Part shown: positions 36-30,360 of the stretch, piece by piece
Layout of the letters: the number at the start of each line of letters is the position of its first letter
Position numbering within the stretch: position 1 is the first letter of the stretch
From: Eledone cirrhosa
Taxonomy: Eukaryota
Direction of reading: 5' to 3'
Assembly (NCBI GenBank): GCA_964016885.1
Contig: OZ024741.1
Location: forward strand, 56,916,001-56,980,000
DNA: 64,000 nucleotides
Position numbers and translations under genes: made by a program
Notes under the pieces: model-generated
Told to the model about the DNA's origin: nothing
The model's input: only the letters and a program-made list of their open reading frames with translations
Databases searched by the model: none

Positions 36-3000
36 TACCCCACCACTACAATCAACATCACCACCACCACCACCACTATCACCATCAACACCACCACCAC
101 TAACACTATCACCATCACCACTATCACCACAATCACTATCACCATCATCACCACCACCACTACCACTATCACCACCACCACCATTACCACTATCACCATC
201 ATCAACACCACCACTATCACTATCACTATCATAACCAGCACCACCACAACTATCACCATCACCACCATCACCATCACCACTGTCACCATCACCACCACCA
301 CTATCACCATCACCACCACCACTATCACCACCACCATCACCACCACTGTCACCATCACCACCACCACCACCACCACTATCACCACCACCACTATCACCAC
401 CACCACCACTATCACCATCACCACCACCACCACCACCACTATCACTACCACCACCACCACTATCACCATCACCACCACCACCACTATCATTATCACCACC
501 ACCACCACCACCACTATCACTACCACCACCACCACTATCACTACCACCACCACCACTATCACCATCACCACCACCACCACTATCATTATCACCACCACCA
601 CCACCACCACCACCACTATCATTATCACCATCACCACCACCACCACTATCATTATCACCACCACCACCAACACCACTATCACCACCACCACCACTACCAC
701 TATCACCACCACCACCACCATCACCATCACCACCACTGTCACCATCACCACCACCACCACTATCATTATCACCACCACCACCAACACCACTATCACCACC
801 ACCACCACCACCACTGTCACCATCACCACCACCACCACTATCACCATCACCACCACCACCACTATCACTATCACCACCACCACCACTATCACCATCACCA
901 CCACCACCACTATCACTATCACCACCACCACCACTATCACCATCACCACCAACACCACTATCACCACCACCACCACTACCACTATCACCACCACCACCAC
1001 CATCACCATCACCACCACCACCACTGTCACCATCACCACCACCACCACCACTATCATTATCACCACCACCACCAACACCACTATCACCACCACCACCACT
1101 ACCACTATCACCACCACCACCACCATCACCATCACCACCACCACCACTGTCACCATCACCACCACCACCACCACTATCATTATCACCACCACCACCAACA
1201 CCACTATCACCACCACCACCACCACCACTGTCACCATCACCACCACCACCACTATCACCACCACCACCAACACCACTATCACCACCACCACCACCACCAC
1301 TGTCACCATCACCACCACCACCACTATCACCATCACCACCACCACCACTATCACTATCACCACCACCACCACTATCACCATCACCACCACCACCACTATC
1401 ACTACCACCACCACCACTATCACTACCACCACCACCACTATCACTATCACCACCACCACCACTATCACCATCACCACCACCACCACCACCACTATCACTA
1501 CCACCACCACCACTATCACTATCACCACTATCACCATCACTATCACCACCACCACCACCACCACTATCACCAGCACCAACACCACTATCACCACTATCAC
1601 CATCACTACCACCACCACCACTATCACTATCACCACCACTACCACTATCACCACCACCACCACCACCACTATCACCACCACCACCACTACCACCACCACC
1701 ACCACTATCACCACCACCACCACTACCACTATCACCACCAACACCACTATCATAAGTAGCACCAACACCACCACCACCACTATCACCACCACCACCACCA
1801 CCACCACTATCACCACCACCACTATCATAACCACCACCACCACCACTACCACTATCACCACCACCACCACCACCACTATCACCACCACCACCACTACCGC
1901 TATCACCACCACCAACACCACCACCACCACTATCACCACCACCACCACTATCACCACCACCACCACCACCACCACTATCACCACCACCACCACCACCACC
2001 ACCACCATCACCACCACCACTATCACCACCACCACCACTACCACTATCACCACCACCAACACCACCACCACCACTATCACCACCACCACCACCACCACCA
2101 CTATCACCACCACCACCACCACCACCACCACCATCACCACCACCACCAACACCACCACCACCACCACTATCACCACCACCACCACCACCACCACCACCAT
2201 CACCACCACCACTATCACCACCACCACCACTACCGCTATCACCACCACCAACACCACCACCACCACTATCACCACCACCACCACTATCACCACCACCACC
2301 ACCACCACCACTATCACCACCACCACCACCACCACCACCACCATCACCACCACCACTATCACCACCACCACCACTACCACTATCACCACCACCAACACCA
2401 CCACCACCACTATCACCACCACCACCACCACCACCACCACTATCACCACCACCACCACCACCACCACTATCACCACCACCACCACCACCACCACCACTAC
2501 CACCACCACCACCACCACCAACACCACCACCACCACTATCACCACCACCACCACCACCACTATCACCACCACCACCACCACCACCACCACCACTATCACC
2601 ACCACCACCACTACCACTATCACCACCACCAACACCACCACCACCACTATCACCACCACCACCACCACCACCTCCACCACCACCACCACCACCACTACCA
2701 CTATCACCACCACCACCACCACCACTATCACCACCACCACCACCACCACTATCACCACCACCACCACCACCACTATCACCACCACCACCACCACCACCAC
2801 CACTACCACTATCACCACCACCACCACCACCAACACCACCACCACCACTATCACCACCACCACCACCACCACTATCACCACCACCACCACCACCATCACC
2901 ACCACCACTATCACCACCACCACTACTATCACCACCACCACCACCACCACCACCACCACCACCACCACCACCACCACCACTATCACCACCACCACCACCA

Positions 3001-3850
3001 CCACTATCACCACCACCACCACCACCACCACCACTATCACCACCACCACCACCACCACCACCACCACCACCACTACCACTATCACCACCACCACCACCAC
3101 CACTATCACCACCACCACCACCACCACCACCACCACCACCACCACCACCACCACCACTACCACTATCACCACCACCACCACCACCACCACCACCACCACC
3201 ACCACCACCACCACCACCACCACCACCACCACTATCACCACCACCACCACCACCACCACCACTATCACCACCACCACCACCACCACTATCACCACCACCA
3301 CCACCACCACCACCACTATCACCACCACCACCACCACCACTATCACCACCACCACCACCACCACCACCACCACCACCACCACTATCACCACCACCACCAC
3401 CACCACTATCACCACCACCACCACCACCACTATCACCACCACCACCACCACCACTATCACCACCACCACCACCACCACTATCACCACCACCACCACCACC
3501 ACCACCACTATCATAACCAGCACCAACACCACTATCATCATCATCATCGTCACCACCACTACAATAACAACTATCAATTCTACCTCCATCATCATCATCA
3601 CCACTACCACACTCATCACATCACCAGCGTTACCATCATCATCATCATCCTCATCATTACCTCTACTACACATTGATCACCACAATCATCATCACCACCA
3701 CCACCACCACTACCATCACCACCACCACCACCATCACCAGCACCACTTATTCCACTGCCATCATCATAACCACTACCGTCTCTATCCCCACTACCACCCT
3801 CAACATTATCATCATCATCATCACCACTACTATCATCATCATCACTATCA
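36..3850. repeat. Long cryptic (CAC/ACC)n trinucleotide satellite with ACT/ATC variants
   Basis: About 3.8 kb of ACC triplets punctuated by ACTATC; explains the 1212-aa poly-Val ORF. Confidence 0.95.
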
Positions 3851-24501: not shown

Positions 24502-24626
24502 ATATATATATAAGTTGAAATAAAATGAAAACGAAATTTCATTTCTCACTCTTAGTACGGCACTTACTTAAATGTAAGTATGTGTGTATACGTACATACA
24601 TATATGTATACAGACGTACAGTAGCA

Positions 24627-24686
<60 letters not shown>

Positions 24687-24839
24687 CAGGTACACATACA
24701 TATATGCACGTATCAGTTTAGCGGACGCTTATTATAACGCCGCTTTGTTCGTTTGTAAACAAACTGAACAGCCTGAATTTTATGCCGTACGGTGTTAAGG
24801 CAACCACGTCACCTTTTTGTTCAACACTGACACAGGAAC

Positions 24840-24878
24840 GATGTACTAGTTTCAAGCTTGTTAGCTATCATCAGCACC
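24840..24878 (-). ncRNA. Hammerhead ribozyme R1 copy 1
   Basis: Minus strand: ggtg CTGATGA t agct aaca agct t GAAA CTAG TA catc. Confidence 0.8.
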
Positions 24879-24889
24879 GTATACCCTTC

Positions 24890-24962
24890 TGCCAGATAGT
24901 TGAACGTTCGAAAGTATATACTTTCCTTATGAAAATTAACGGCTGAGCAGCCTAATTTGCAT
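24890..24962 (-). promoter_or_regulatory. Putative snRNA-type (type 3 Pol III) promoter: octamer, PSE-like block, TATA
   Basis: Minus strand: ATGCAAAT (24962-24955), 34 nt including TAATTTTCATA, TATATA (24920-24915), 24 nt, AGAAGGG. Confidence 0.6.
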
Positions 24963-25116
24963 ATCGAGTGAGTTAAGTCGGTCAGGCATACCGAAAACGA
25001 TAAGTTGAAATAAAATGAAAACGAAATTTCATTTCTCACTCTTAGAACGGCACTTACTTAAATGTAAGTATGTGTGTATACGTACATACATATATGTATA
25101 CAGACGTACAGTAGCA

Positions 25117-25214
<98 letters not shown>

Positions 25215-25367
25215 CAGGTACACATACATATATGCACGTATCAGTTTAGCGGACGCTTATTATAACTCCGCTTTGTTCGTTTGTAAACAAACTGAACAGC
25301 CTGAATTTTATGCCGTACGGTGTTAAGGCAACCACGTCACCTTTTTGTTCAACACTGACACGGGAAC

Positions 25368-25406
25368 GATGTACTAGTTTCAAGCTTGTTAGCTATCATC
25401 AGCACC
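25368..25406 (-). ncRNA. Hammerhead ribozyme R1 copy 2
   Basis: Identical to copy 1. Confidence 0.8.
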
Positions 25407-25417
25407 GTATACCCTTC

Positions 25418-25490
25418 TGCCAGATAGTTGAACGTTCGAAAGTATATACTTTCCTTATGAAAATTAACGGCTGAGCAGCCTAATTTGCAT
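25418..25490 (-). promoter_or_regulatory. Second copy of the R1 promoter cassette
   Basis: ATTTGCAT 25483-25490 and TATATA 25443-25448 as read on the plus strand. Confidence 0.6.
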
Positions 25491-25571
25491 ATCGAGTGAG
25501 TTAAGTCGGTCAGGCATACCGAAAACGATAAGTTGAATAAAATGAAAACGAAATTTCATTTCTCACTCTTA

Positions 25572-25635
<64 letters not shown>

Positions 25636-25673
25636 ATACTTTGGGAGGGTCATGTTGCCAATAAGAAACACAC

Positions 25674-26284
25674 TTGTATAGGAGCAAATTTTGGAATAGA
25701 ATAGAAAGAACTAGGAACAAGGCTAATAGAATAAACTCATGGTATGATAGCAATAAATACCAGAGTGTAATGTTCATCGATACAACCCCTAGAGGTGAAT
25801 TAGCTTACAAATTTAGAAGGGCCCTAAATAAACATAAACTCAATATTAAGATAGTAGAAAGACCAGGTACCTCCGTAAAAACACTTATTAGCAAGACATA
25901 GCCTTTTCAAAGACCCTCATGTATAGATAAGAAATGTATAACCTGTAAAATAAGCCCCCATATTAACTGCAAAACTAGAAATGTACTGAAGGACAACGTA
26001 GAGACAAAAATATAGTGTACATAGGTGAGACAGCTCGTAGTGTAGGAGAACGGATAAATGAACACTGGCGAGACCTTCAAGATAGTAAAGAATCATCTGT
26101 ACTCTACCAACATGCTAAAATAGAACACAAGGGTAAATTAGAGAACATAGAAATAAAAATAGAATCTACACACAGAAAAGACGCAATGTTTAGACAAATT
26201 ACAGAGGCAATAAACATAAAAGAATTACAACCAAAATTAAATAGAAAATATGAGTGGAACAGTAACATCACAACTCACAATTAA
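25674..26284 (+). pseudogene. PLE ORF 3' part: RT thumb/linker, Cys-rich linker and GIY-YIG endonuclease (stop and frameshift)
   Basis: SVMFIDTTPRGELA..KIVERPG; CIDKKCITC..C; YIGETARSVGERINEH..LYQHAKIEH..RQITEAINI..PKLNRKYEW. Confidence 0.85.
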
Positions 26285-26485
26285 GGACAAAATGAAAACA
26301 CACACACACATAGAACAAACAACCAACCAGTAACATGTAAATAAACAAATAAATAAATGAACATAAACACACACAGACACCCGGATGTGGCGCATGCGCA
26401 GACTGAGCACACAACACACACACAGAAACAAAATGGCGTAGGACAGAACAAAGGAGAGGCACAGAAACAAAGAAAGGAATCCCCA

Positions 26486-26526
26486 GTCACTGAAGAGGTC
26501 ACAGAGTGTGTGACGAAAGAACTGAC
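26486..26526 (+). ncRNA. Hammerhead motif in the PLE pseudo-LTR
   Basis: gtca CTGAAGA g gtcaca gagtg tgtgac GAAA gaac tgac; stem III / cleavage triplet degenerate. Confidence 0.6.
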
Positions 26527-26906
26527 AATATATAAACAACTATCTGGTTGTGGAACCAACCAACCAACCAGAAATTTATAAATTTATAAATTTATTATAA
26601 ATTTATTATAATAAATTGAAGTGAAAGCAACTGGTGCGTGTGTTTCTTATTGGCAACATGACCCTCCCAAAGTATAACAATATCGGTTTCAACACACGAT
26701 TTCAGATAAAGAATCTTGCTAAACAAATTCAGAAACGATATATATATATATATATAGAATGTTTAAGTATCGAGAGAGAGAGAAAAGGAAAGATAAGCGA
26801 TACATATATTTAGTTGCCAATAGTTTGTGCAAGAATGAACTCTGATGTGAATTTAACCTTAAAACTCCTCCTGGGTCGCGTACTGATCATTTTTTTTTGT
26901 TTTATA

Positions 26907-26947
26907 TGCCCTTGAGAAGCCCGTTCTGGGCGAAACGTACGTAGGTA
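26907..26947 (+). ncRNA. Variant-core hammerhead-like motif
   Basis: tgcc CTTGAGAA gccc gttct gggc GAAA CGTACG TA ggta: all three stems present, non-canonical 5' core. Confidence 0.5.
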
Positions 26948-28041
26948 CATTGTTATATAAACATGTTTTAACGGTATTTACTCCTTTGTATTCATTTCTT
27001 TTACATATATATATATAGGGCATATATTAGGGCATATTCGGCCGGAAGTAGAAAGTGCCGATTGTGCCTACACGAGGCCATGGAGATAGTCAGACTGAAG
27101 GATGACGCCGTCAACTTGAAGTCTGAAATTATCATGACATGCAGACACTAGAGAAGATGCACATTTGCAGCATGGAACCCGCCGGGTGACGCAGGCAGGT
27201 GGCATGGGAATGAGTACGCTCAGACCCGATTGGCCTAGCGGGGTTAGGGGACCTGATGCCATGCCATGATGACGGCGTCTGACCCGTGGGGCAATCATAT
27301 GTAAACCGGGTGCGCACGTGACCGAGCACGCAACATTGCAAGATACACCGCATGGGCCGGGACCGGCTGACACGGGGCCCACTGCCACCAAGTCCTGTGC
27401 AATAAATGTATAGAACAGCACACCCCAGCCACGGTGCCATGCCCCATGGCGACCGTGACGGGCGTCACATTGAATGTGTACACCGTCAATCGTGACTATA
27501 TACTCTACACCTGTTCCACCTTGGAACAGTGATTATTAATATCATTATTGTTCTATCATTGTTCTGTTACTGTTACCTGTTCTATACACGGACACAAGTT
27601 TGCATCTCATAATACCTGTGTGTAGTATATCGCATGGATGCACGCACCCTCTCCTGTACCCCCCCCCCCCCGTTTTTCTTTTTTATTTTACCCGTTCCTT
27701 TATTTTACCCCTTCTTTTCTTGTACCTATTTATGCAGTTACATACAGATTTTAATGTACCCTAAAATATTGTAAATTTATTTATTTATTTTATTATCATA
27801 TTGTGTTTATGTTCACGTGTTTTTATGTGAGAACATGTGTGTGGGTATATGCGCCTGTGTGTGTGAGTAGATGCGTATGTATGCATATATATACGTGGGT
27901 GGGTGCTGGGTGTGTGTATGGGCATGGGTGCGTGTGTGCACGAGCTTATACGCGCCTGTGTGTGCAGACATGTGCATATATATACATATGTGGCGGAATG
28001 TGGGTGTATGTGTACGTGAGTATGTGTGTCTATATATGAGC

Positions 28042-28071
<30 letters not shown>

Positions 28072-28078
<7 letters not shown>

Positions 28079-28711
28079 TTTTGCGAGGTTTTTTATATGA
28101 AATCGTGTGTCGAAACAAATATTGTTATACTTGGGGAGGGTCATATTTGTGTAATATTGCCAGAATTAATAACAGAACACACTCACTGTTTGGTTGGTTT
28201 TCGCTTCTCGCTGTCTTTTATATCGGTAATCTAACTTACTCGGTCCTCAATGTTGCCATTGACTGACCGACGGTCAAAAATAATACAGATACAATATAGA
28301 CACAAACACATATATATATAGTTTATCATAAATCTTTCGTTGCACATCTGCAACATCGTCAGTGGTGTCATATTTTCCTCCTGTTGTGTTGTGTCTACGC
28401 CATTTTTATTCAGTCTCTGAATAAAAATGGCGTAGACATACAAGACAACAGGAAGAAAATATGACACCACTGACGATGTTGCAGATGTGCAACGAAAGAT
28501 TTATGATAAACTATATATATGTGTTTGTGTCTATATTGTATCTGTATTATTTTTGACCGTCGGTCAGTCAATGGCAACATTGAGGACCGAGTAAGTTAGA
28601 TTACCGATATAAAAGACAGCGAGAAGCGAAAACCAACCAAACAGTGAATGTGTTCTGTTATTAATTCTGGCAATATTACACAAATATGACCCTCCCCAAG
28701 TATAACAATAT
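28072..28711. mobile_element. About 590-bp palindrome made of two PLE pseudo-LTRs, plus a 47-nt tail
   Basis: Arms 28119-28413 / 28417-28711 with a 3-nt loop; ends ccctccccaagtataacaata like 26660-26680; HHR in each arm. Confidence 0.9.
28466..28507 (+). ncRNA. Hammerhead ribozyme motif (mirrored on minus at ~28325-28366)
   Basis: acca CTGACGA t gttgca gatg tgcaac GAAA gattta tgat. Confidence 0.65.
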
Positions 28712-28980
28712 ATATATATATATATATGTCTATATGTGTATGTGTGAGTATGTACGTATAGCCACGTTTGAGTAGGTGTGTGTGTGTGGTGGGTGGGTAA
28801 GTGTGCGTATATATATGTGTGTGTGTATGTGTCTATATATGTGGATGTGTATGTGGGTGCAGGTGCATGCATATGCAGGCCTTTATATGTGTCTATATGT
28901 ATTTGTGCATACAAGTATGTGTTTATGTGCATCTCATGGGAATGTGTGCAGATGATTATATATGGACTATATATGCTTTG

Positions 28981-29160
28981 ATTGGCAGTATCAGTAGAGG
29001 GTCGGACGCCAAGCTTTCCAGCATAGTTACGTCCCTTTACGATCTGAGTTCAAATCCCGCCGAGGTTGACTTTGCTTTTCATCCTTACGGGGTCGATAAA
29101 ATAAAGTACCAGTAATGCACTGGGTAATTGCTGGCCTTGTGCCTAAAGTAGAAACAATTA
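28981..29160 (+). mobile_element. S1 SINE copy
   Basis: Near-identical reverse complement of 14805-14983. Confidence 0.85.
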
Positions 29161-29418
29161 TTACTATTATTCTTGTTGTATTAAAAACAAATAACGAAAC
29201 GAAATTAAATTTCGTTTCGTTTGTAACTCACTTTTGTATGACTGACGCTTAAACAATTAAGTTAAAAATGTACATCTACATATGCATACTGAAATACTAG
29301 TGTGTATATGAATACACACACGTATACATATGTAGGTGTAACAGACAAACCGGTTTTTAGAGTCATACTGGTTTTCGGGGGAACACCTTCCCTCTATTCT
29401 CCAGAAAGCCAGACAAGG

Positions 29419-29460
29419 AATATTGAACTAGTTTCGTTGTTACAACTCATCAGCAATATT
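29419..29460 (-). ncRNA. Hammerhead ribozyme R2 copy 1
   Basis: Minus strand: aatattg CTGATGA gttg taa caac GAAA CTAG TT caatatt; 7-bp stem I, GUU site. Confidence 0.85.
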
Positions 29461-29480
29461 TACCTATCTACCGGCCCTTC

Positions 29481-29553
29481 TGGAGAATTGTAAAAGCACA
29501 TATCGTTATATGCTTTTTCTATGAAAATTAGTAGTGGGCAGACTAATTTGCAT
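29481..29553 (-). promoter_or_regulatory. Putative type 3 Pol III promoter of R2
   Basis: Minus strand: ATGCAAAT, 34 nt including TAATTTTCATA, ATATAA, 24 nt, AGAAGGG; same spacing as R1. Confidence 0.6.
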
Positions 29554-29882
29554 AGAGTGTGAGTACGCACCGGTTCAGCGGAGACGATAAAAACAAATAA
29601 CGAAACGAAATTAAATTTCGTTTCGTTTGTAACTCACTTTTGTATGACTGACGCTTAAACAATTAAGTTAAAAATGTACATCTACATATGCATACTGAAA
29701 TACTAGTGTGTATATGAATACACACACGTATACATATGTAGGTGTAACAAGTCTTTCACTGGTTGCTTTACTGTGAGCAACCCAGCTATTCTGTATGTAA
29801 ACACACAGACAAACCGGTTTTTAGAGTCATACTGGTTTTCGGGGGAACGCCTTCCCTCTATTCTCTAGAAAGCCAGACAAGG

Positions 29883-29927
29883 AATATTGAACTAGTTTCG
29901 TTGTTGTTACAACTCATCAGCAATATT
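29883..29927 (-). ncRNA. Hammerhead ribozyme R2 copy 2
   Basis: As copy 1, with 3 extra nt in the stem II region. Confidence 0.8.
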
Positions 29928-29946
29928 TACCTATCTACCGGCCCTT

Positions 29947-30360
29947 TATTATCAGGGCTATCCTTTCTACGGATTGCATTGCATATTGTTTGGGCCACCA
30001 CATCGTACCTTATAGGTAGTTAGTATCGTGATGACATCTTTGAACAGTTGCTTATGATATGGGTGACATCCTTGATATTTATTCCGTGGAGTCAGCATTT
30101 GTTGTTACATCTAGATGCTTTGCTTGCTTCTCTTTTGTGCGTTAGGTATTTCGTTGTTATTTCTTGTTCTTGGATTGCAAAAGCATATCCTTCAAAATGA
30201 GAGCCAATATAGCGATTGTTAGTCCATATTATCTATATTACTGTCCCTTTGAAGCTTTCTGACGACATAGCCATGCATGATTTTTTTGTTGATAAGCATA
30301 CAACGTTTTATCTGTTGTGCAATATCCCTGGATGTAAGTTTTTGGTTATCATAGAGTCAT
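29947..30360 (-). pseudogene. Remnant of an RLE-type non-LTR retrotransposon (R4/Dong-like), post-RT Zn-knuckle region
   Basis: Manual translation EGYAFAIQEQEITTKY..NKC*LHGINIKDVTHIISNCSKM..IRYDVVA resembles the AIQEQ..CRxC..E..HI..C..RHD pattern. Confidence 0.65.

Follow-up and report, generated by a model that had tools for sequence, protein, structure and literature searches.

snRNA gene-like promoter signals in the units of hammerhead retrozymes from Eledone cirrhosa

Judged from its sequence, the genome of Eledone cirrhosa holds tens of thousands of predicted self-cutting repeats, each unit of which contains signals like those of snRNA genes. Two families of such repeats, R1 and R2, lie as minus-strand arrays in the window, the whole 64,000-nucleotide stretch of DNA that was analysed (Table 1). 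We consider it probable that the two families are related to each other, that they are non-autonomous retrozymes mobilised by a Penelope-like element (PLE), and that each unit carries an snRNA-type promoter made of the host's own motifs. The presence of these promoter-like cassettes suggests that retrozymes may switch themselves on rather than rely on neighbouring genes.

The R1 and R2 arrays

R1 and R2 are tandem hammerhead units, as the sequence-only reading had described. Each of three cassettes precedes a minimal type I hammerhead on the minus strand, and the core and stems I-III (CTGATGA, stem II, GAAA, stem III AC-TA-GT and stem I) were found in 4/4 window motifs, the fourth being R2 copy 1; stem II of R1 starts with a U-U mismatch. 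An Rfam search of the window gave no match at gathering score. Below that score, Hammerhead_HH9 matched both R2 motifs (E 2.7e-7 and 1.2e-4) and, weakly, one R1 motif (E 1.4), while miRNA and other sub-gathering matches were set aside as TA-repeat or hairpin artefacts. A hammerhead descriptor matched R1, R2 and F3 copies, with 0 sites in 399,560 shuffled bases.

Summed over five distance bins, the octamer with KAG preceded a hammerhead core at 26,981 sites, mostly copies of a few families, against 13 for the reversed patterns, and hence more often than by chance; 17,152 matches of the cassette-plus-hammerhead pattern fell at the R1 distance and 6,468 at the R2 distance. Arrays lie on many contigs, the top copies being 98-99% identical, with units of ~480-530 nt in R1, whose length differs between copies with an internal TA run, and of 467 nt in R2. 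On these features, R1 and R2 are non-LTR retrozymes, non-autonomous and predicted to be self-cleaving. Because only 1/9 Xenopus elements showed self-cutting (bioRxiv 10.64898/2026.07.22.740005), cleavage activity is not to be assumed here. R2-like sequence was also seen in contigs of three organisms (four sequencing runs of unknown kind).

Table 1. Features of the R1 and R2 arrays, in positions of the window
Feature	Position	Strand	Details
R1 retrozyme array	24511..25572	-	~2.2 units of 528 nt; 5'-truncated; target a TA microsatellite
R1 promoter-like cassette, copy 1	25419..25491	-	TATGCAAATTAG at -73, TCAG at -56
R1 cassette copy 1, other parts	25456-25466; 25448-25443	-	inverted arm; TATATA at -30
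R1 predicted start 25418, leader and minimal type I hammerhead	25367..25418	-	start placed from TATA; predicted cut after 25372 (GUA)
R1 promoter-like cassette, copy 2	24891..24963	-	
R1 predicted start 24890, leader and hammerhead, copy 2	24839..24890	-	predicted cut after 24844
R1 tail hairpin	24511..24551	-	ends at main fixed 3' end of R1 family
R2 retrozyme array	29183..29946	-	~1.8 units of 467 nt
R2 hammerhead, copy 1	29883..29927	-	predicted cut after 29890 (GUU)
R2 promoter-like cassette	29482..29554	-	TATGCAAATTAG at -73, CCAC at -56
R2 cassette, other parts	29520-29530	-	inverted arm; ATATAA at -30
R2 predicted start 29481, leader and hammerhead copy 2	29419..29481	-	predicted cut after 29426
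R2 tail region	29588..29674	-	two T5 runs, 29670-29674 and 29589-29593
R2 tail hairpin	29182..29234	-	ends at main fixed 3' end of R2 family

The bodies of R1 and R2 had been taken as unrelated. Measured against shuffling of 2-base blocks, however, their alignment exceeded chance in the hammerhead (z 9.7), the body (z 5.8) and the tail (z 3.9), which led us to reject independent origins; on this alignment the two are distant homologues. Conservation was highest from octamer to TATA (z 10.8) and was found neither between TATA and +1 (z -0.5) nor in the upstream spacer. Because R1 and R2 share ancestry, their agreement counts as one origin.

The cassette beside host snRNA-type promoters

On the minus strand, the octamer starts at 25490, 24962 and 29553, and AGAAGGG follows exactly 72 nt on (25418, 24890 and 29481), as first read. 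A TATA 34 nt after the octamer holds for R1, whereas in R2 this offset falls on ATATAA and TATA itself starts a base further on; its place at -30 holds by definition, since +1 was placed from TATA. AGAAGGG is present in the three window copies but was rejected as an initiator motif because most listed copies read otherwise, AGATGGG or AGGAAGG in R1 and AGAGAGG, AGAAAGG or AGAGAAG in R2, with only the A/AG at +1 constant. The proposed PSE, TAATTTTCATA, proved to be a near-inverted copy of ATGCAAATTAG that varies together with it across families; in that form it was absent ahead of all six host Pol III genes, and it was likewise discarded.

The host sets used as a yardstick were small (6 Pol III and 13 Pol II promoters); host starts were taken as Rfam model ends, and near-identical array copies were collapsed to one. 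U6 copies lacking upstream motifs (L007 group, L014 and L015) and 5/6 U6atac loci, which are probably disrupted or retroposed, were kept out of the Pol III set. By motif matrix, the cassette's likeness to the upstream motif of host U6, U6atac and MRP genes is real. TATGCAAATTAG matched this motif in 5/6 host Pol III genes but in 0/13 Pol II snRNA promoters, and the host Pol III set (U6, U6atac and RNase MRP) shares TATGCAAAT(T/G)AG with R1 and R2. A matrix built from five host Pol III promoters gave R1 and R2 18.6 bits, a score reached by 1 and 0 of 2000 shuffles, respectively, whereas the best of the 13 Pol II promoters scored 4.0 bits.

The claim of a U6 architecture, and with it of a type 3 Pol III promoter, survived in part only: the host U6 upstream motif stood, whereas the spacing, the PSE and the TATA box as a diagnostic did not. 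Octamer and TATA are 34 nt apart in R1 and R2 against 38-40 nt in the host, so the octamer is 4-6 nt nearer to TATA than it is in all the host genes examined. A TATA-like box lies near -30 in both host sets, including 13/13 Pol II snRNA promoters (U1, U2, U5 and U12). R1 may share with these Pol II promoters a TCAG-like core at -56; R2 has no significant core. A motif-anchored matrix for the TCAGT-type core at -55 to -58 gave p 0.014 for R1 and p 0.18 for R2, uncorrected for multiple tests, in a test of 16 element sequences that was run after a broader position-fixed Pol II matrix had been not significant (838/5000 shuffles; R1 p 0.52, R2 p 0.86). With the anchored matrix, the core was placed at -56 in R1, F1b, F3 and F5, and it was absent in 3/3 F4 copies.

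R1 and R2 thus fit neither host promoter class in full, the U6 spacing being short and the Pol II core weak. If the promoter works, we lean slightly towards Pol II as the polymerase, with Pol III nearly as plausible. A sub-case of our preferred explanation, a strict type 3 Pol III promoter at which leaky stops at T4-T5 runs would yield multimers, is possible but rather doubtful. The distribution of the upstream motif over host genes argues for it, as do the exact U6 spacing retained in the related families F6 and F7 (octamer to TATA 39-41 nt, as in U6/MRP) and the use of Pol III by schistosome hammerhead repeats. Host Pol III genes terminate in T5-T10, mainly T6 or longer, and young R1 has only T4 on the sense strand. 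However, older R1-lineage copies carry T5-T7, T6-T7 in some units, and R2 has two T5 runs, T6 in some copies, in the path of any full-unit transcript. Also against strict Pol III use are the octamer-to-TATA offset, about half a helical turn, given that PSEA-to-TATA spacing in insects is described as precisely conserved; the Pol II-type core noted above; and RNase P, itself a host Pol III gene, which lacks the octamer.

Under the preferred reading, the cassette would start transcription ~30 nt past TATA, right before the hammerhead. Unlike host snRNA-type promoters, it sits within a mobile unit and has no 3' box: searching R1, R2 and F8 units with a pattern taken from the sequence that follows host U1/U2/U5 genes gave no site, as expected under read-through. 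The polymerase would then continue into the next unit or units, and, by analogy with related retrozymes, the hammerheads would cut the multimer into units able to circularise, each containing a promoter because the promoter sits upstream of the next hammerhead.

Further families and known hammerhead repeats

A cassette with a TATA-like box at a fixed distance was found in no fewer than five further groups whose hammerheads differ (F3-F7, of which F6 and F7 are older families); the octamer in F1b-F7 was required by the search patterns and hence is no independent evidence. Two loci, L197 and L207, from a screen that covered the first 27 of 30 loci, were dismissed as chance matches. A promoter-blind hammerhead scan of loci yielded the tandem family F8 (310-nt unit) and its relative F9. 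Neither has the octamer, but at -56 both match the core of host U1/U2/U5 promoters, a match reached by 3 and 0 of 2000 shuffles, and they carry AATT at -89. For the AATTA motif at -88 to -91, p was 0.016 in R1, 0.91 in R2, and 0.09 and 0.08 in F8 and F9. The F8/F9-type pattern occurred in 17,662 units, a copy count only, as the pattern was fitted to F8 and F9. By these matches the F8 family carries a U1/U2-type promoter in place of the U6-type cassette, and three putative promoter layouts are present in Eledone cirrhosa retrozymes: U6-spaced, shortened hybrid and U1/U2-type.

These families also bear on whether the cassette is a promoter at all. It might be an RNA hairpin or an inherited relic, with transcription arising by read-through from neighbours, as a review has proposed (PMC7761336); we regard this as unlikely. 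In R1, R2, F3, F4 and F5, an arm further downstream pairs and co-varies with the octamer arm, and pairing within an RNA hairpin is a second possible cause of octamer conservation; the homology of R1 and R2 and their spacing, unlike that of every host gene examined, point the same way. Yet the octamer arm keeps exactly the letters of a host motif that is not itself transcribed, even as the partner arm drifts, and in F6 it pairs upstream rather than downstream. The distance to TATA is constant whereas the sequence from TATA to the start is free, and in a second lineage the other of the two host snRNA promoter types is present, spaced as in the host. RNA stems begin 7-15 nt ahead of the predicted start, and the cassette folds on its own, so that the promoter would be part of the selected RNA.

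The promoter of newt satellite 2 reportedly consists of an octamer plus PSE, and that of the schistosome Sm-alpha repeats is said to be of tRNA type. The combination of hammerhead satellite and snRNA-type promoter, which had been thought undescribed, has already been published for newt satellite 2 (Coats, Zhang and Epstein 1994, cited in PMC2220036; Cremisi 1992, cited in PMC6765202), in these citing accounts a hammerhead repeat in tandem whose internal promoter, of snRNA type, is used by Pol II. The present case concerns an invertebrate-type genome and differs from what those accounts relate also in its many families, its TATA-like box and its three promoter layouts, matched here to host genes by sequence alone. 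The logic of a promoter inside a tandem array was also known, from schistosome Sm-alpha hammerhead repeats (PMC6765202), in which promoter and hammerhead follow in tandem and the upstream copy drives the next; as far as that account extends, they are SINE-like with a Pol III promoter, whereas the R1/R2 cassette is of the upstream snRNA type. An snRNA-type promoter within a hammerhead repeat is therefore a known concept, so far from single cases such as the newt.

Metazoan non-LTR retrozymes (PMC7229834; PMC7761336; bioRxiv 10.64898/2026.07.22.740005) resemble R1 and R2: their units are non-coding, tandemly arranged and a few hundred bases long, each has a type I hammerhead, and they occur in thousands of dispersed copies, with strongly self-paired circles and PLEs as the likely mover. 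The R1/R2 hammerheads differ in being of the minimal palindromic stem III type. Retrozyme circles are abundant across all tissues examined (PMC7229834). According to a 2020 review, retrozymes seem to lack promoters, and since none were seen the current model explains their expression by read-through (PMC7761336); R1 and R2, by contrast, have host snRNA-type cassettes. If these cassettes work, the 1994 newt result would represent a general design rather than an oddity, and the expression of retrozymes could be tested directly, since a single genome offers three natural promoter layouts. A bolder version, which we put forward only tentatively and think rather unlikely as a whole, is that animal retrozymes are generally driven by internal snRNA-type promoters, that separate lineages in this genome took both host classes, and that the R1/R2 lineage shifted the spacing of a U6-type cassette by half a helical turn, so that Pol II is recruited and transcription passes the T runs of the unit. 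A selfish circular RNA would then have undergone a natural switch of polymerase.

Insertion anatomy and mobilisation

Penelope-type mobilisation, as proposed earlier, fits the insertion marks but lacks a partner with a matching cassette among three PLE-type families. Among 43 scored 3' ends each, 16 in R1 and 21 in R2 lay at the main site, and a further 9 and 18 at a second site ~59 nt and ~70 nt earlier (25/43 and 39/43 together). The two fixed 3' ends, the TA flanks and targets, and the truncated or inverted 5' arms match PLE behaviour: elements such as Poseidon of Anolis (PMC11167929; PMC8557442) likewise end at two fixed 3' positions, tailed or untailed, insert at AT-rich or TA sites, are 5'-truncated, form tandem and inverted arms, and contain a hammerhead. 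Unlike PLEs, R1 and R2 have no ORF, and their tail of 59-70 nt is T-rich, not AC-rich.

The end of the R1 tail hairpin is probably a site where reverse transcription initiates internally, a role assigned from PMC11167929. The insertion anatomy suggests that a Penelope-type enzyme would nick TA repeats, reverse transcribe from either of two fixed internal sites by the tail hairpin, and copy through hammerhead, start and promoter, giving truncated, tandem or inverted arrays in which a promoter again precedes a hammerhead. The promoter does lie inside the replicated unit, as had been supposed: among the first 100 matches listed, sampled by a pattern that required A or T at the anchor base, 34/37 R2 arms pass both the cut site and the predicted start. 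The promoter would thus travel with the RNA, and linear RNA from +1 or from the cut site was rejected as the main template.

No autonomous partner was found among the three PLE-type families (one over 25 loci, the L127 fragment and an element in the window). All three lack an octamer before the hammerhead and show instead GCGCATGCGC or AAAATGGCG motifs, which we take to be NRF1- and YY1-like. Pfam gave no name for five fragments that, by their motifs, are presumably PLE-like. That the cassette is the pseudo-LTR (pLTR) promoter of an autonomous PLE ancestral to the retrozymes, and no capture from an snRNA gene, seems quite improbable, with the reservation that many PLE families probably exist; in its favour, a relationship exists between vertebrate retrozymes and the pLTRs of PLEs, promoters are present in such pLTRs, and the R1/R2 insertion anatomy is PLE-like. 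Within the window, copy 2 of the R2 array is without ~60 nt of body. Two single cases were also seen, the window R2 array, whose 5' end lies at +3 of the predicted start, and one arm that starts at the cut site.

Cassettes and hammerheads of the R1 and R2 arrays

The retrozyme arrays R1 and R2 carry three cassettes where the sequence-only reading had placed them: on the minus strand, the octamer ATGCAAATTAG lies at 25490, 24962 and 29553, and AGAAGGG follows 72 nt further on. Behind each of the three AGAAGGG sites, we observed a short leader followed by a minimal type I hammerhead with a palindromic stem III. Rfam gave no match in the window at gathering score, and its Hammerhead_HH9 model matched below that score. 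The TATA offset of 34 nt past the octamer was confirmed, although in R2 this offset falls on ATATAA. AGAAGGG, which had been taken for a fixed start motif, differs between subfamilies, and the proposed PSE, TAATTTTCATA, proved to be a near-inverted copy of ATGCAAATTAG that forms an RNA hairpin. In older R1, TAATTTTCATA is replaced by TAATATGCATA; in F3, a further hammerhead group with the octamer cassette, CTCATTTACA facing ATGCAAATGAG stands in place of the TAATTTTCATA/ATGCAAATTAG pair. R1 and R2 are a real feature and, by testable criteria, retrozymes at the level of family members.

The assembly containing the window is that of an animal (3.0 Gb, 1,796 contigs), with repeats that would appear octopus-like. 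In it, the octamer-plus-hammerhead pattern gave 17,152 matches for the R1 distance and 6,468 for that of R2, and neither reversed control gave any; three other distance bins gave 1,312, 1,812 and 237 matches, versus 5, 3 and 5 in the reversed controls. Both are large dispersed families. Their bodies, described earlier as unlike, are those of distant homologues across hammerhead, body and tail, and the common cassette therefore has a single origin and has been kept by selection. The octamer-to-TATA stretch is the best conserved between the two, and the TATA-to-start stretch is not conserved.

Host snRNA promoters and the promoter class of R1 and R2

The comparison set comprised the U6, U1, U2, U5, U12, U6atac, RNase MRP and RNase P genes of the same genome. 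Three distinct U6 promoters, together with those of MRP and U6atac, share TATA at -30 and, at -76 to -78, TATG(C/G)(A/T)AAT(T/G)AG. In the RNase P RNA gene (L218, G000:C24:12936134-12936474), the octamer motif is absent and a U1/U2-type TCAGT lies some 6 nt farther from TATA; the gene ends in T9, and most host Pol III genes end in T6 or longer. Among 13 distinct U1/U2/U5/U12 promoters we found 0 octamers, with AATT at -88 to -91 and (T/C)CAG at -55 to -58, and a TATA-like box lies near -30 in all host promoters of this type (L021-L055, L143-L156, L187). Vertebrate Pol II snRNA genes are not known to have such a box. Because the Pol II snRNA promoters have it here, TATA is not a Pol III mark in this genome.

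At six of 20 U6 loci, in an array on G000:C19 (L007, L008, L010-L013), a SINE-like repeat directly before TATA replaces the upstream motif; the same repeat occurs in the window. At L141 (G000:C19:7531494), a U6atac-like copy runs straight into an inverted fragment of a retrozyme cassette of the F5 type.

A matrix of five host Pol III motifs scored R1 and R2 at 18.6 bits, a value that no more than 1 of 2000 shuffles reached, and Pol II snRNA promoters at 4.0 bits at the most; the likeness of R1 and R2 to U6 is therefore real. The suggested U6-like promoter stands as regards the upstream motif, which is that of host U6, but not as regards the octamer-to-TATA spacing, which is 34 nt versus 38-40 nt in the host. 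Since spacing, one defining test, failed, we do not class the cassette as a host U6 promoter. In Drosophila, a 4-nt spacing difference sets Pol II apart from Pol III promoters. Insect PSEA-to-TATA spacing is described in PMC1761439 as precisely conserved. A motif-anchored matrix gave R1 a putative core of the Pol II type at -56 (p 0.014) as well as a weak AATT-like site (p 0.016), and R2 neither (p 0.18 and 0.91, respectively); a broader position-fixed Pol II matrix, run before the motif-anchored one, was not significant. The -56 core is present in the octamer families F1b, F3 and F5 and absent in F4. The sense strand contains two T5 runs in R2 and T6-T7 in some R1-lineage units. Given the predicted promoter, Pol II is slightly favoured over Pol III as the polymerase of R1 and R2.

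Further hammerhead families

Octamer-to-TATA spacing is 32-35 nt in F1b, F3, F4 and F5, before different hammerheads, and 39-41 nt, the U6 spacing, in the older F6 and F7, the octamer itself having been demanded by the search patterns in F1b and F3-F7. Several F6 and F7 copies have T5-T8 runs soon after the hammerhead; these may act as terminators or belong to the closing stem. A hammerhead scan without promoter requirement, covering 951,873 bases of loci from this genome, yielded 122 distinct motifs in 17 clusters, 12 of them without the octamer, versus 0 motifs in 399,560 bases of shuffled control. Two of these 12 clusters, F8 and F9, combine AATT at -89 and (T/C)CAGT at -56 or -57 with TATA at -30, which is the layout of host U1/U2/U5; the core was reached by 3 (F8) and 0 (F9) of 2000 shuffles, and 17,662 units match the F8/F9-type pattern genome-wide. 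Of all the support for the cassettes, this layout is the most independent, and it suggests that they are snRNA-type promoters.

Insertion anatomy, reverse transcription and proposed cycle

In R1 and R2 insertions the 5' arms vary and are often inverted, and the 3' ends are fixed at internal sites. This was scored across 20 regions for R1 and 30 loci for R2, six overlapping loci having been removed; being the best matches to promoter-containing queries, these loci are biased towards the promoter. Of 43 scored 3' ends in each family, 39 in R2 fell at two sites separated by about 70 nt, and 25 in R1 at two sites separated by about 59 nt, the other R1 "ends" being mostly alignment breaks within the internal microsatellite. 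TA runs flank the insertions. For Penelope-like elements (PLEs), PMC11167929 and PMC8557442 describe two initiation sites giving an optional tail, AT-rich targets, and truncated tandem or inverted copies.

In a less biased list of 7,106 R2 copies, anchored just past the cut site, 97 of the first 100 extend through the hammerhead to -12; counted by array arm, the same first 100 gave 34 of 37. The reverse-transcribed RNA therefore covers the cut site, start site and promoter, and is either circular or a multimer that was not cut. RNA folding fits this: the hammerhead-closing stem reaches 7 nt (R2) and 15 nt (R1) upstream of the predicted start, and the circular monomers fold well below their shuffles, at -158.6 versus -101.7 +/- 5.3 kcal/mol and at -144.0 versus -95.4 +/- 5.8 kcal/mol (60 shuffles each), with TA runs contributing in R1. 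No pile-up of insertion 5' ends at the predicted start was seen in the wider R2 sample. The R2 insertion of the window is a single case: its first base, 29946, lies at +3 relative to the predicted start, which is what an uncut primary transcript would give. In an inverted R1 array, the two outward ends (L072:1985 and 7130) are each followed by an identical 30-base flank, an inverted target-flank duplication.

We propose that transcription would start at about +1, that the polymerase would read through into the following sequence, and that the transcript would self-cleave at its hammerheads, yielding units that would circularise and be mobilised by a PLE enzyme. In all three PLE-type families examined, an octamer before the hammerhead was absent.

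The promoter of newt satellite II reportedly has an octamer plus a PSE. PMC2220036, citing Coats et al. 1994, makes an snRNA promoter responsible for its Pol II transcription, and PMC6765202 reports Pol II transcripts in newts, and in schistosome hammerhead repeats a Pol III promoter and a need for tandem copies to propagate. Judged by sequence, R1 and R2 would work like newt satellite 2. The sequence-only reading knew of no description of the combination; the concept of an snRNA-type promoter in a hammerhead repeat is already in print. The retrozyme family and its PLE link are defined in PMC7229834 and bioRxiv 10.64898/2026.07.22.740005, whose accessible sections name no retrozyme promoter; PMC10886601, PMC6309819 and PMC2837043 contributed nothing further. 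Literature that included few subscription papers reported no snRNA-type promoters or U6-type cassettes in invertebrate retrozymes, and supplements or repeat databases may already contain families of the R1/R2 type. The predicted cassettes would contradict the current promoter-less retrozyme model at genome scale, and this is easy to test.

Hammerhead families and neighbouring features (window coordinates or loci of the same genome)
Feature	Position	Observation
R1	24511-25572 (-)	Retrozyme array
R2	29183-29946 (-)	Retrozyme array
F6	L190, L194, L196, L203, L205, L211, L212	Old, decayed hammerhead family
F7	L188, L199, L209, L210, L216	Old, decayed hammerhead family
F8 and relative F9	L243:1-900, L121, L160:2500-2800, L161	F8 tandem, 310-nt unit
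PLE fragment	25640-26700	Inverted ends; hammerhead near 26490; GCGCATGCGC and AAAATGGCG motifs upstream of it
Reading frame	25979-26284	In the PLE fragment; presumably GIY-YIG-like by its motif; no Pfam match
Inverted repeat	28120-28710	Near-perfect; hammerhead-like core per arm; ends like neighbouring PLE fragment, of which it is probably a non-autonomous derivative
SINE-like repeat	28980-29160	As before TATA in the G000:C19 U6 array
Broken reading frame	29960-30320	Interrupted by the R2 insertion; we take it to resemble the end of a non-LTR retrotransposon
Tandem array	40-3746	3.7 kb, CCA/CAT-rich, extreme strand skew
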